This document shows, piece after piece, positions 24,821-27,715 of a stretch of 64,000 nucleotides of DNA (position 1 is its first letter; each line of letters starts with the position of its first letter). The notes beneath the pieces were generated by a model that saw only the letters and a program-made list of their open reading frames with translations, was not told the origin of the DNA and made no database searches. The translations under genes were made by a program, and so were the position numbers. Origin of the DNA: Methanomicrobiaceae archaeon (GTDB lineage: Archaea > Halobacteriota > Methanomicrobia > Methanomicrobiales > Methanomicrobiaceae); the NCBI GenBank assembly GCA_029762625.1, contig JARVGI010000003.1:81909-145908 (forward strand), read 5' to 3'.

Positions 24821-25090
24821 ATGTCAAATAAAGCGGAACTAATCGTATATACGCTTGAAAACTGCCCAAATTGTGAACTCCTGAAAGAATACCTCGCTGC
24901 GTGCGGCGCGGCGTTCCAGGAGCGCGACATGATGAGTGCTGAGGCGCTCACCGAGATGCGGATCAACGGTGTGTTCGTCAGGGAAGCCCCCGTTCTGCAG
25001 AGGGACAAGACGTTCTTGACATCAGCCGAACTTTTCGCCGCCGGATCGGTCAGGAATGAGGTCGTCAGCCCGCTGCTCAAGGGTGATTGA
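24821..25090 (+). CDS. Glutaredoxin/NrdH-like small redox protein (CPNC active site)
   Basis: MSNKAELIVYTLENCPNCELLKEYL..., 89 aa, thioredoxin-fold pattern. The stop overlaps the start of the NrdD-like gene. Confidence 0.7.
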   Translation: MSNKAELIVYTLENCPNCELLKEYLAACGAAFQERDMMSAEALTEMRINGVFVREAPVLQRDKTFLTSAELFAAGSVRNEVVSPLLKGD

Positions 25091-27285
25091 GCGTGGCCCG
25101 GGAGTCCAGAACCGCCACACAGCAAAAGACACTTGACGGGTTTGTCGTCCCCTCGCTTCCCAAGGTGCGGACTTCGCGGGGCCTCATCCTCGACTGGGAA
25201 CGGGAAAAGATTGTCCGGCAGATCATTGATGAGACGAAACTGGTCGAGTCGTTCTACGAGGATGGCGGTGCGGACGAGGAACTTGCCCGCGATATCGCGC
25301 GCGAGGTGGAGAACAAAATCCAGCGCCTGAACTTAAAATCCCTCAGCGGGCCGCTGATCCGCGAGATTCTCAACATCACCCTCCTCGAGCGGGGGCTCGT
25401 CGAGTACCGCAACGTCTGCACCCGGGTGGGAACCCCTGTCTTCGACGCGCACTTAATCGATGTCGGACGGGGGTTCGAGGCACACGACAACGCCAACCTG
25501 CAGGAGAACGCGGAGACCTCGCACAAGAAAAAGGCCGACAAGATCAGCAAGGAGCAGTACCTCCTCCAGCTGCCCCCTGCCCTCGCCGACTACCACATGG
25601 GCGGCGACCTGCATATCCACGACCTGGAGTACCTCGGTACGCGCCCGTTTTGCCAGGATTGGGATCTCCGCTACTTCTTCTACTACGGGCTAATGCCCGA
25701 TGGCAACGGGACAAAAGCGTCGGTGGCGGGGCCGGCAAAGCGGCCCGAGGTGGCGGTGTTGCACGCGGTCAAGGCGCTGGGCAGCGCCCAGACCAATTTC
25801 GCCGGGGGGCAGGGCTACTACAATTTTCTCACCTTTATTGCCCCCTATTTCGAGGGCATGGCCTATGACGAGATCAAGCAGCATATGCAGATGTTCGTCT
25901 ATGAGATGACGCAGATGATGGTGGCCCGCGGCGGGCAGGTGGTCTTCTCCTCGGTGCAGCTCTCGCCGGGCGTGCCCAAACTCTGGAAGGACAAACCCTG
26001 CGTATACAAGGGCAAGATCTGGAATGGCCGGCAGGCTCCCCTGCGGTGCTACGGCGAATTCGAACGGGAAGTGCGTCTGCTGTTCAAGGCGCTCATGGAC
26101 GTGATGCTGGAGGGCGACCACTGGGGCAAACCTTTCAACTTCCCCAAGCCCGAGATCAGCATCGAGCCGGACTTCATTGCAGAAGACGAGGAATTTAACG
26201 CCGACCACCCCGACCTGCCCACGTTTCGCGACCTCTACCTCATGACCTTCGAGCTCGCCTCCAAGTTCGGCACCCCCTACTACGACAACCAGATCCCCCC
26301 GTACCGGGGCGCCGGCGAGGGCATCTCCTGCTACCAGTGCTGCGCGTACCAGTTCTCCACCGTCGCAGGAGAGGATGATGAATTCGATGAAAAACTGCAG
26401 TTTTCGGAAGGTAAGCACTTCTCCATGGGGTCGTGGCAGGTGATCTCGGTCAACTGCCCCCGGGCGGCCTACCGTGCCGAGGGCGACGATGGCCGCCTCA
26501 TCGCCGAGCTGAAGAAACTCATGGACGTGGCCGTGGAGGTCTTCCAGATCAAGCGCCGCTGGATGAACCACATCCGGGCCAGCGGGCGCATGCCGTTCGC
26601 CATGCAGCGCCCCCTCGACCCCAACACCGGCGACCGGGGTGCGGTGGCGGTGGACCTCGAGGGGCTCGTCTATACCATCGGCGTAGTGGGCGTCAATGAG
26701 ATGGTCCAGCACCATACGGGTGCGCAGCTCCACGAGAGCACGGAGGCGTTCAACATGGCCATCAGGGCGATGACCCACATGGAGGTCTATGCCCGGGATC
26801 TCTCAGAAAAGCACGGGATGACCATCGCCCTCGCACGCACCCCGGCCGAGACCACCGGGCAGCGCTTTTCGGTCGCCGACCTCATCGACCACCGGTTCCG
26901 GGACTATGCTCTCGCCGTCGTCAAAGGCGACGTGGAAACGGCGATGGACCAGATCGGCACGACCTACGACCTTCCCATCTACTACACCAACGGCACCCAC
27001 GTCACGCCCGCCGCGGACGTCTCCCTCACCCGGCGGATGGAGATCGAGCACGTCTTCTTCCCCATTGTGGACGGTGGCAATATCTTTCACATCTGGCTGG
27101 GCGAGGCCCGCCCAGATCCCCGAGGCCTCATGGATATGGCCATGAACCTCTGCAAAAACACCCAGATCGGCTACTTCGCCTTCACCCGCGACCTGACCGT
27201 CTCCTTAAAACAGTTCACCGAATACCGGCCGAAAAAAGAGCACGCCGGCCAGCTCTCCATGGTGGACAAGCGGGTGAAGGTATAG
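25087..27285 (+). CDS. nrdD: Class III (anaerobic) ribonucleotide reductase NrdD-family protein with atypical C-terminus
   Basis: 732 aa. ATP-cone-like N-terminus (ILDWEREKIVRQII...). Core blocks GGDLHIHDLEY, GGQGYYNF, VFSSVQLSPG, FNFPKPEI, GSWQVISVNCPR and GGNIFHIWLGE...IGYFAFTRDLTV. Only TTG 25087 or GTG 25093 are available as starts; the first in-frame ATG is about 160 codons in. Confidence 0.75.
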   Translation: MSVARESRTATQQKTLDGFVVPSLPKVRTSRGLILDWEREKIVRQIIDETKLVESFYEDGGADEELARDIAREVENKIQRLNLKSLSGPLIREILNITLLERGLVEYRNVCTRVGTPVFDAHLIDVGRGFEAHDNANLQENAETSHKKKADKISKEQYLLQLPPALADYHMGGDLHIHDLEYLGTRPFCQDWDLRYFFYYGLMPDGNGTKASVAGPAKRPEVAVLHAVKALGSAQTNFAGGQGYYNFLTFIAPYFEGMAYDEIKQHMQMFVYEMTQMMVARGGQVVFSSVQLSPGVPKLWKDKPCVYKGKIWNGRQAPLRCYGEFEREVRLLFKALMDVMLEGDHWGKPFNFPKPEISIEPDFIAEDEEFNADHPDLPTFRDLYLMTFELASKFGTPYYDNQIPPYRGAGEGISCYQCCAYQFSTVAGEDDEFDEKLQFSEGKHFSMGSWQVISVNCPRAAYRAEGDDGRLIAELKKLMDVAVEVFQIKRRWMNHIRASGRMPFAMQRPLDPNTGDRGAVAVDLEGLVYTIGVVGVNEMVQHHTGAQLHESTEAFNMAIRAMTHMEVYARDLSEKHGMTIALARTPAETTGQRFSVADLIDHRFRDYALAVVKGDVETAMDQIGTTYDLPIYYTNGTHVTPAADVSLTRRMEIEHVFFPIVDGGNIFHIWLGEARPDPRGLMDMAMNLCKNTQIGYFAFTRDLTVSLKQFTEYRPKKEHAGQLSMVDKRVKV

Positions 27286-27373: not shown

Positions 27374-27715
27374 ATGGCAGATAACGGAGGAAACTTCTGG
27401 CTGGGGGTTGTTGCGGGCTGGATCGTGGCCGCCCTCCTGAACGGGATCTGGCCGCTCATCGGCCCCATCTTCGGGGGCTTCGTGGCAGGGTTCATGGCAC
27501 GCGGGGGCATGTGGAACGGGGCGATCGCAGGGTTGCTTTCCGGCATTCTGGGATCACTGGTCGCCGCGATCATCCTCCTCATCGGGGGGACCTTCCTGCT
27601 CGGCGGCATCGGCTTTCTGGCAGGCCTCGGGGCAGGGCTGGTGCTGATCTTCTTCGCTCTCTGGGGTGGTATTCTCGGAGCGGTGGGTGGTGCCATCGCC
27701 GGGTTCCTGAGATAA
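27374..27715 (+). CDS. Small glycine-rich integral membrane protein (DUF5518-like)
   Basis: 113 aa, about 4 TM segments rich in G/A/L/I (GGFVAGFMARGG..., LLGGIGFLAGLGAGLVLIFFALWGGILGAVGGAIAG). GGAGGA precedes the ATG. A T5 tract at 27725-27729 follows the stop. Confidence 0.55.
   Translation: MADNGGNFWLGVVAGWIVAALLNGIWPLIGPIFGGFVAGFMARGGMWNGAIAGLLSGILGSLVAAIILLIGGTFLLGGIGFLAGLGAGLVLIFFALWGGILGAVGGAIAGFLR

Follow-up and report, generated by a model that had tools for sequence, protein, structure and literature searches.

Two genes lie on the plus strand between positions 24,821 and 27,285 of a 64,000-nucleotide stretch of DNA from a Methanomicrobiaceae archaeon (contig JARVGI010000003.1, positions 81,909 to 145,908; this whole stretch is referred to below as the window). 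The first (24821..25090) encodes an NrdH-like redoxin of the glutaredoxin fold. The second (25093..27285) encodes a protein of 730 amino acids, the large subunit of what appears to be a split class III ribonucleotide reductase (RNR), which takes the form of an NrdD3-type barrel without a Zn-ribbon and glycyl-radical domain. A stand-alone protein carrying that domain is encoded on another contig of the same assembly. Taken together, the two chains very probably represent a natural split, NrdH-dependent class III RNR of the NrdD3 type, to which the glycyl radical would be supplied in trans.

The truncated NrdD barrel and its redoxin neighbor

The Pfam NRDD profile (PF13597) aligns with residues 134-705 of the large protein over profile positions 1-510 of 562 (442.7 bits), and TIGR02487 is covered from position 2 to position 529 of 581 (466.6 bits, cut-off 326.35). 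Both matches stop early, so the protein has no counterpart to the last ~52 profile positions, where the Zn-ribbon and the glycyl-radical loop are located. There is no RVxGY motif in the large protein and only a single cysteine among its last 60 residues; the C-terminal end reads ...YFAFTRDLTVSLKQFTEYRPKKEHAGQLSMVDKRVKV, with 26 residues between ...YFAFTRDLTVS and the terminus. An earlier note, made from the letters of the window alone, had described a protein lacking both elements in cis, with one cysteine in the last 60 residues and an end 26 residues past the YFAF block, and each of these observations is borne out. A Pfam search of the large protein finds no intein and no further domain.

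The N-terminal region contains a degenerate ATP-cone-like domain (25162..25407, plus strand), which scores 19.9 bits with PF03477 (E 0.0011) and misses the cut-off of 25.8. With a profile of the family, this stretch can be aligned to the ATP-cone of Prevotella copri NrdD 8p23, and a precomputed PF03477 match exists in some homologs of the large protein. Thus, of the two assignments made earlier for this chain, the class III core stands firmly, while the ATP-cone-like N-terminus is a weak match.

The catalytic landmarks of the barrel are in place. The conserved β-A active-site cysteine (Cys189 in the numbering of the 732-residue reading; 25651..25653, plus strand) pairs with Cys125 of T. maritima NrdD in the alignment of PFCQDW with PYCFAY, and is invariant, as C187 of the 730-residue chain, in 30 of 30 aligned family members. 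The finger loop, which reads YQCCAYQF, contains the presumed site of the thiyl-radical cysteine, QCCA (Q417-C418-C419-A420; 26335..26346, plus strand). Both cysteines of this motif (C416 and C417 in 730-residue numbering) are invariant among 30 aligned family members, and the conservation of the GISCYQCCAYQF block reaches 90% or more among 107 homologs. A QCCR/A finger loop that lacks Met or Glu marks the NrdD3 clade (Burnim et al., PMC9669993). Judged by its QCCA loop and by the NrdH-like redoxin in its operon, the large protein appears to be of the NrdD3 subtype, in agreement with its earlier placement in a thiol-dependent subclass of methanogens. The AlphaFold2 model of the large subunit (predicted local distance difference test score, pLDDT, 62; residues 700-730 below 50) is usable for fold assignment only, and a Foldseek search of the PDB with this model returns class III RNRs as all of the top 34 matches (E 1e-20 to 1e-11).

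The upstream gene specifies 89 amino acids with a CPNC active site and matches Pfam Glutaredoxin above the cut-off (24.5 versus 22.9 bits). With TIGR02194, the model for bacterial NrdH, it reaches 21.7 bits, far under the cut-off of 85.75, and so the protein is regarded as NrdH-like by context and not as a member of the bacterial model. The proposal that NrdD is coupled to this redoxin is supported by the fact that every fused ortholog, and one other split relative, has an nrdH-like gene, 45-58% identical, that lies directly upstream of nrdD or overlaps it. Both start codons previously considered for nrdD open the same frame, which yields 732 amino acids when read from TTG 25087 (25087..27285, plus strand). 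GTG 25093 is the likelier start, because a GGTGAT Shine-Dalgarno-like hexamer resides 6 nucleotides upstream of it and because the closest homologs are 730 amino acids long. The reported overlap of the two genes, 4 nucleotides in extent, exists only with the TTG start; with GTG, the redoxin stop falls 2 nucleotides before nrdD.

Directly 3′ to nrdD in the window (27374-27715) is a gene for a glycine-rich DUF5518 membrane protein of 113 amino acids, at the position occupied by nrdG in the fused orthologs of Methanosarcinaceae. The order in the latter is nrdH-nrdD-nrdG; relative to this arrangement, nrdH has stayed beside nrdD in the window and nrdG has moved.

The stand-alone glycyl-radical protein

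A search of the assembly itself with the NRDD profile yields a second match above the cut-off, at G000:C21:343524-343679, which spans profile positions 506-562. This match belongs to a stand-alone glycyl-radical protein of 120 amino acids (13 kDa; G000:C21:343329-343691, on another contig than the window), and is the only family match of that protein above cut-off. The small protein reads MNWTPEQ...YKCHTCHH...CPCCGETH...CPLDHCHCAHH...EYCPLCGHAVCPECGTHDVSQVSRVTGYLADVAGWNSGKQQELKDRVRYSVA. It is composed of an N-terminal Cys/His-rich part, a self-contained CPLCG-x4-CPECG zinc knuckle (C-x2-C-x4-C-x2-C), a β-hairpin with R92-V-T-G95-Y96 and a C-terminal helix, and the sequence beyond the knuckle includes SRVTGY...WNSGKQQELKDR. 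Across 58 small-protein sequences, C71, C74 and C79 as well as R92, T94, G95 and Y96 are invariant, and C82 is at least 90% conserved. The gene is under strong purifying selection, with a ratio of nonsynonymous to synonymous substitution rates (dN/dS) of 0.06-0.09. In the AlphaFold2 model (pLDDT 80.8), short zinc-ribbon-like strands are accompanied by a hairpin (strands 88-90/97-99) with G95 at its tip and then a helix (105-113), a prediction that fits the hairpin-helix part of the glycyl-radical-domain architecture described previously (PMC13450708).

Apart from the one on this small protein, the genome has no glycyl-radical motif. No pyruvate formate-lyase-like enzyme was found in the genome, and hence the truncated NrdD is the only barrel that the small protein could serve. 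The earlier note had proposed that the window encodes a radical-domain-less paralog of unknown chemistry, while allowing that a separately encoded glycyl-radical domain might exist. Such a domain is present in the genome and is conserved along with the truncated NrdD, and the conclusion drawn from the window was therefore wrong.

The small gene has a recognizable neighborhood (G000:C21:342024-344569; L002 1-2546), in which the order is the deoxyhypusine synthase gene, pyrF, the small gene and a gene for CbiZ plus a Cys-rich zf-like part. The CbiZ/zf-like gene has a long open frame that runs into the 3′ end of its small neighbor. This synteny is kept in five other loci (L015, L017-L019 and L037).

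The large protein (profile positions 1-510) and the small protein (506-562) tile a fused NrdD of ~800 amino acids. Fused forms, in which the glycyl-radical motif resides inside frames of 750-830 amino acids, occur in genomes outside the order but within the same phylum, and the sister lineages that carry them include Methanosarcinaceae. Residues 1-710 of the large protein correspond to residues ~45-755 of the fused enzyme (65-68% identity), and residues 76-120 of the small protein to residues ~760-804 (55-61% identity). In an alignment with four fused orthologs, the latter read ...YFAFTKDMSVC-MDDFH-MMAGLKD-ACENCGS..LSRVTGY, whereas the split large protein reads ...YFAFTRDLTVS-LKQFT-EYRP and no longer has the Cys and His ligands proximal to the barrel. 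The break point is marked by S706-LKQF-T711 (27202..27219, plus strand), where fused orthologs have C-MDDF-H, in which Cys and His are the ribbon's first two Zn ligands. That serine takes the place of the first ribbon cysteine had been recognized from the window, and Ser706 is at least 90% conserved across Methanomicrobiales. Beyond the break point are a weakly conserved tail of 21 residues and the stop codon (27220..27285, plus strand), which have no counterpart in fused NrdD. Conservation of the barrel among the 107 homologs is 90% or higher as far as ...DLTVSLKQF-E; past KQF-E, it falls to 20-70% per column, and the last ~18 residues are variable.

Other candidates for a radical glycine within the large protein were considered and rejected. 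KQFTEYRP, offered in the earlier note as the best counterpart of RVxGY, aligns with the first half of the fused Zn-ribbon (C-MDDFH-MMAG), with Cys replaced by Ser706 and His by Thr711, and is thereby ruled out as a degenerate radical motif. The glycine in the IGY of TQIGYFAF is likewise ruled out, because the same block precedes the genuine RVTGY in fused orthologs.

It is exceedingly improbable that the truncation is an artefact of sequencing or assembly, such as a frameshift or a mis-join near 27200. In a survey of 151 sampled genomes of Methanomicrobiales, closed genomes included, every NrdD of the split type, in 128 genomes, ends at NRDD profile position 510-516, and more than 100 independent database proteins share this end point. 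A sequencing error can thus be dismissed, and with it the idea that correcting a frameshift would restore a Zn-ribbon and RVxGY tail. The glycyl-radical domain, moreover, is encoded either on a different contig or at a distance of hundreds of kb, and possesses its own start codon together with TATA-like and Shine-Dalgarno-like sequences. Among the 120 best homologs of the large protein, 107 measure 700-760 amino acids, and homologs with the same C-terminus (726-735 amino acids) occur in Methanoregula boonei, Methanoculleus, Methanogenium, Methanoplanus, Methanomicrobium and others. In many Methanoculleus-like genomes (for example G004, G118 and G142; P0078, P0114), between one and three inteins are present in the large-subunit gene, inserted near NRDD profile positions ~53-60 and ~260, and the resulting frames are 1200-2020 amino acids long.

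The frequency of inteins in the large gene of relatives, and the existence of atypical split inteins with short N-fragments, could be taken to mean that the two chains are joined after translation, by split-intein trans-splicing or some other ligation. This explanation is very unlikely. There is no intein or Hint match in Pfam for either the tail of the large protein or the N-terminus of the small one, and the 21-residue tail is poorly conserved. The 65-residue N-terminal part of the small protein is a conserved Cys/His zinc module that does not display the usual His-Asn followed by Cys/Ser/Thr at its end. In addition, all four knuckle cysteines are located on the small protein and the Cys/His ligands have been lost from the large one, a distribution that fits an autonomous subunit.

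Distribution in Methanomicrobiales and in sister lineages

The truncated large gene is present in 127 of the 151 surveyed genomes, and one further genome has a decayed fused copy only. The small gene is complete in 127 of the 151, always in a frame of its own (120-290 amino acids), at full length, with 63-100% identity and never fused; in two of these genomes, fragments truncated by the end of a contig are seen in addition to, or in place of, a whole copy. An nrdG gene was detected in 128 of the 151, and an intact fused NrdD copy of the split type in none. At the level of genera, the large gene, the small gene and nrdG occur together in 32 of 33, and all three are missing from the remaining one (g23), in which 21 of 21 genomes are devoid of them. 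A few other genomes are short of one or two of the three genes, and most of these are incomplete assemblies, with a completeness of 56-93%. Where the genome is closed, distances of hundreds of kb separate the three genes. The gene content, the tiling of the two proteins, their conservation and the co-occurrence of the genes are observed in the genomes directly.

In the genome under study, nrdG occupies a third locus (C11:440954-441748) and encodes a radical-SAM activase of 264 amino acids, with Radical_SAM and Fer4_12 domains and a CPVRCHYC motif. Its TIGR02495 match (C11:441134-441703; 162.3 bits, cut-off 131.15) is the sole NrdG match above the family cut-off. The earlier statement that the window contains no nrdG is correct; the gene lies elsewhere in the genome, on contig C11.

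A broken fused nrdD is seen in one genome of genus g23 (G128; L028/L033, G128:C1:573301-576320, minus strand). Profile positions 1-449 are covered in a frame of 467 amino acids, and positions 426-560 in a segment interrupted by one TGA and one TAA. From its sequence, this copy looks like a decaying pseudogene.

A search of the genome also finds, as the earlier note had suggested looking for, a class II RNR of the NrdJ type (554 amino acids; G000:C24:77746-79410, L012 1276-2940), identified by its NPCGEQ loop and C-terminal CDVC pair. The nrdJ gene adjoins a cobyric-acid-synthase-like gene, cobQ. By its gene complement, then, the organism has two RNR systems. It could be that the truncated NrdD represents a relic, or a paralog with no catalytic role such as a nucleotide-binding or regulatory protein, that deoxyribonucleotides are provided by NrdJ alone, and that the small protein is unrelated or without function. 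The completeness of the class II enzyme is compatible with this proposal, as is the existence of a genus in the order that lives without any NrdD. The proposal is nevertheless improbable, given that the barrel, with the β-A cysteine and QCCA included, shows at least 90% conservation throughout the order and that the small gene evolves at the low dN/dS reported above. In addition, 32 genera have retained all three genes and one has lost all three, and a real pseudogene, such as that of G128 with its stops and broken frame, has a different appearance.

Stand-alone domains are not confined to genomes with a truncated NrdD. In Methanococcoides, Methanohalophilus and family f29, one or two complete fused NrdDs are accompanied by a stand-alone protein of 118-194 amino acids that matches profile positions 505-562 (stand-alone L036 and L038-L040 with fused L022-L026 and L029-L031 in genomes G398, G191, G214 and G390; stand-alone L034/L035 with fused L020/L021 in genomes G345 and G357). 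Common to all stand-alone forms, and not found in fused NrdDs, are a CPxC-x4-CPxC-xxH knuckle and, upstream of it, a CP(L/V)...C module. These shared elements favor a common ancestry of the stand-alone forms without proving it, and a tree of the ~60-column glycyl-radical region, in which 4 of 36 branches are supported, does not settle whether their origin was single. The stand-alone proteins residing beside an intact NrdD are candidate spare parts for class III RNR, similar in concept to GrcA. Their occurrence suggests that a spare-part-like gene may have come first, and that the NrdD of Methanomicrobiales lost its own domain later.

This coexistence with intact fused NrdD in Methanococcoides and Methanohalophilus implies that the small protein family is not always obligate. 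It thereby lends something to a further alternative, according to which the thiyl radical has another source, either a radical-SAM enzyme acting directly or adenosylcobalamin, and the small protein is a spare part or regulator. The small gene also adjoins the cobinamide-salvage gene cbiZ. Still, there is little probability in this alternative: nrdG, whose family model describes activases of the NrdD glycine, is retained and lost with the large and small pair, and the small protein bears the sole glycyl-radical motif of the genome. To our knowledge, there is no precedent for a class III barrel that operates without a glycyl radical.

A proposed two-piece enzyme and its known counterparts

In the split, NrdH-dependent enzyme proposed here, NrdG would take a hydrogen from Gly95 of the small protein, which would dock on the barrel with its Gly loop against the finger loop. 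Cys418 or Cys419 would then receive the radical and pass it on to the nucleotide. The NrdH-like protein would re-reduce the active-site disulfide and would itself probably be reduced by one of two ferredoxin:thioredoxin-reductase (FTR)-like proteins. The genes for these proteins, which resemble the FTR catalytic subunit (G000:C11:259574-259834 and G000:C4:41339-41581; L043 and L044; PF02943, 77 and 73 bits), encode candidate reductases for the redoxin. A ferredoxin disulfide reductase route was reportedly described for M. barkeri NrdD in 2015, in work by Wei and colleagues, and the NrdH-like gene and the two FTR-like genes are in line with such a route. A plausible, if speculative, advantage of the arrangement is that, following cleavage by oxygen at the radical glycine, only a subunit of 13 kDa would have to be replaced.

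Several considerations weigh against this proposal. Docking, activation in trans and enzyme activity are attributed to the two chains by analogy, from their homology with single-chain NrdD. The structural model of the large subunit is of low confidence, and its active-site loops have a pLDDT below 50. A Foldseek search of the PDB with the small-protein model returns only generic zinc-ribbons, at E>1, although this null is uninformative, probably because such a domain is otherwise embedded within much larger chains. No upstream motif is shared by the nrdH, small and nrdG genes beyond GC-rich 7-mers. Finally, the presence of class II NrdJ means that the split enzyme is not demonstrably essential and is not the only RNR.

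Among the known systems closest to the split enzyme is the single-chain NrdD3 of Methanosarcinales, such as the enzyme of M. barkeri. The two are alike in the barrel, with the identity given above, in a QCCA/R loop lacking Met or Glu, in the nrdH-like gene at the nrdD start, and in the presence of FTR-like genes and NrdG. In the fused enzyme, however, C...H...CxxC and RVTGY are found at the C-terminus of the same chain and nrdG directly follows nrdD. In the split enzyme, the Zn-ribbon/radical domain is on another contig, Ser and Thr/His stand in place of the barrel-proximal ligands, and a third locus holds nrdG.

Glycyl-radical enzymes have been described as consisting of one chain, with a C-terminal radical domain that has to swing out of the barrel for activation. 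A small stand-alone glycyl-radical domain, presumably activated by the activase of its partner, is a trait that the small protein shares with GrcA/YfiD of E. coli and Y06I of phage T4. For GrcA, the homology is with the C-terminus of pyruvate formate-lyase, whereas the small protein is homologous to the C-terminus of NrdD (PF13597 positions 506-562) and has zinc sites. A further difference from the GrcA spare part is that the partner NrdD lacks a glycyl-radical domain of its own, so that the small protein would be obligate and not spare. The sole free-standing radical domains known, GrcA/YfiD and Y06I, serve pyruvate formate-lyase, and in a 2026 review formate lyases are given as the one class among glycyl-radical enzymes with known spare-part proteins (PMC13450708).

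A division of the RNR chain itself has a counterpart in class II, in NrdJa/NrdJb of Pseudomonas aeruginosa (PMC4520616; discussed in PMC9669993). There too, the chain is divided into a large, barrel-bearing piece and a small C-terminal piece with a zinc finger, but the enzyme depends on adenosylcobalamin, and the small piece carries the reducing cysteines and the zinc finger rather than a radical. The genes for NrdJa and NrdJb are adjacent, and those of the split NrdD are at distant loci. The literature searched describes split RNRs for class II only; no description of a split class III RNR was found, although the NrdD2/NrdD3 papers of Wei et al. may contain a remark on one.

The 730-residue proteins are annotated as a complete "anaerobic ribonucleoside-triphosphate reductase", and the small partner as hypothetical, as an oxidoreductase or as RPABC4/Spt4-like. 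This holds a warning for both annotation and phylogeny, in that one piece of the proposed enzyme is filed as the whole and the other piece under different names.

On balance, it seems reasonable, with somewhat less assurance than for the split as such, to view the system as an order-wide, obligate two-chain glycyl-radical enzyme, in which a free zinc-binding subunit of 13 kDa would be radicalized and plug into the barrel, and which would descend from a GrcA-like spare part. If this is true, exchangeable radical subunits would for the first time extend beyond the pyruvate formate-lyase family, and a glycyl-radical enzyme that receives its radical domain exclusively in trans would be without earlier example. 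The split enzyme would also offer a natural system in which activation (NrdG and the 13-kDa protein) could be studied separately from catalysis (the barrel and the radical subunit). For the organisms themselves, the arrangement may provide a cheap means of repair after oxygen damage, which would be relevant to methanogens facing transient oxygen.

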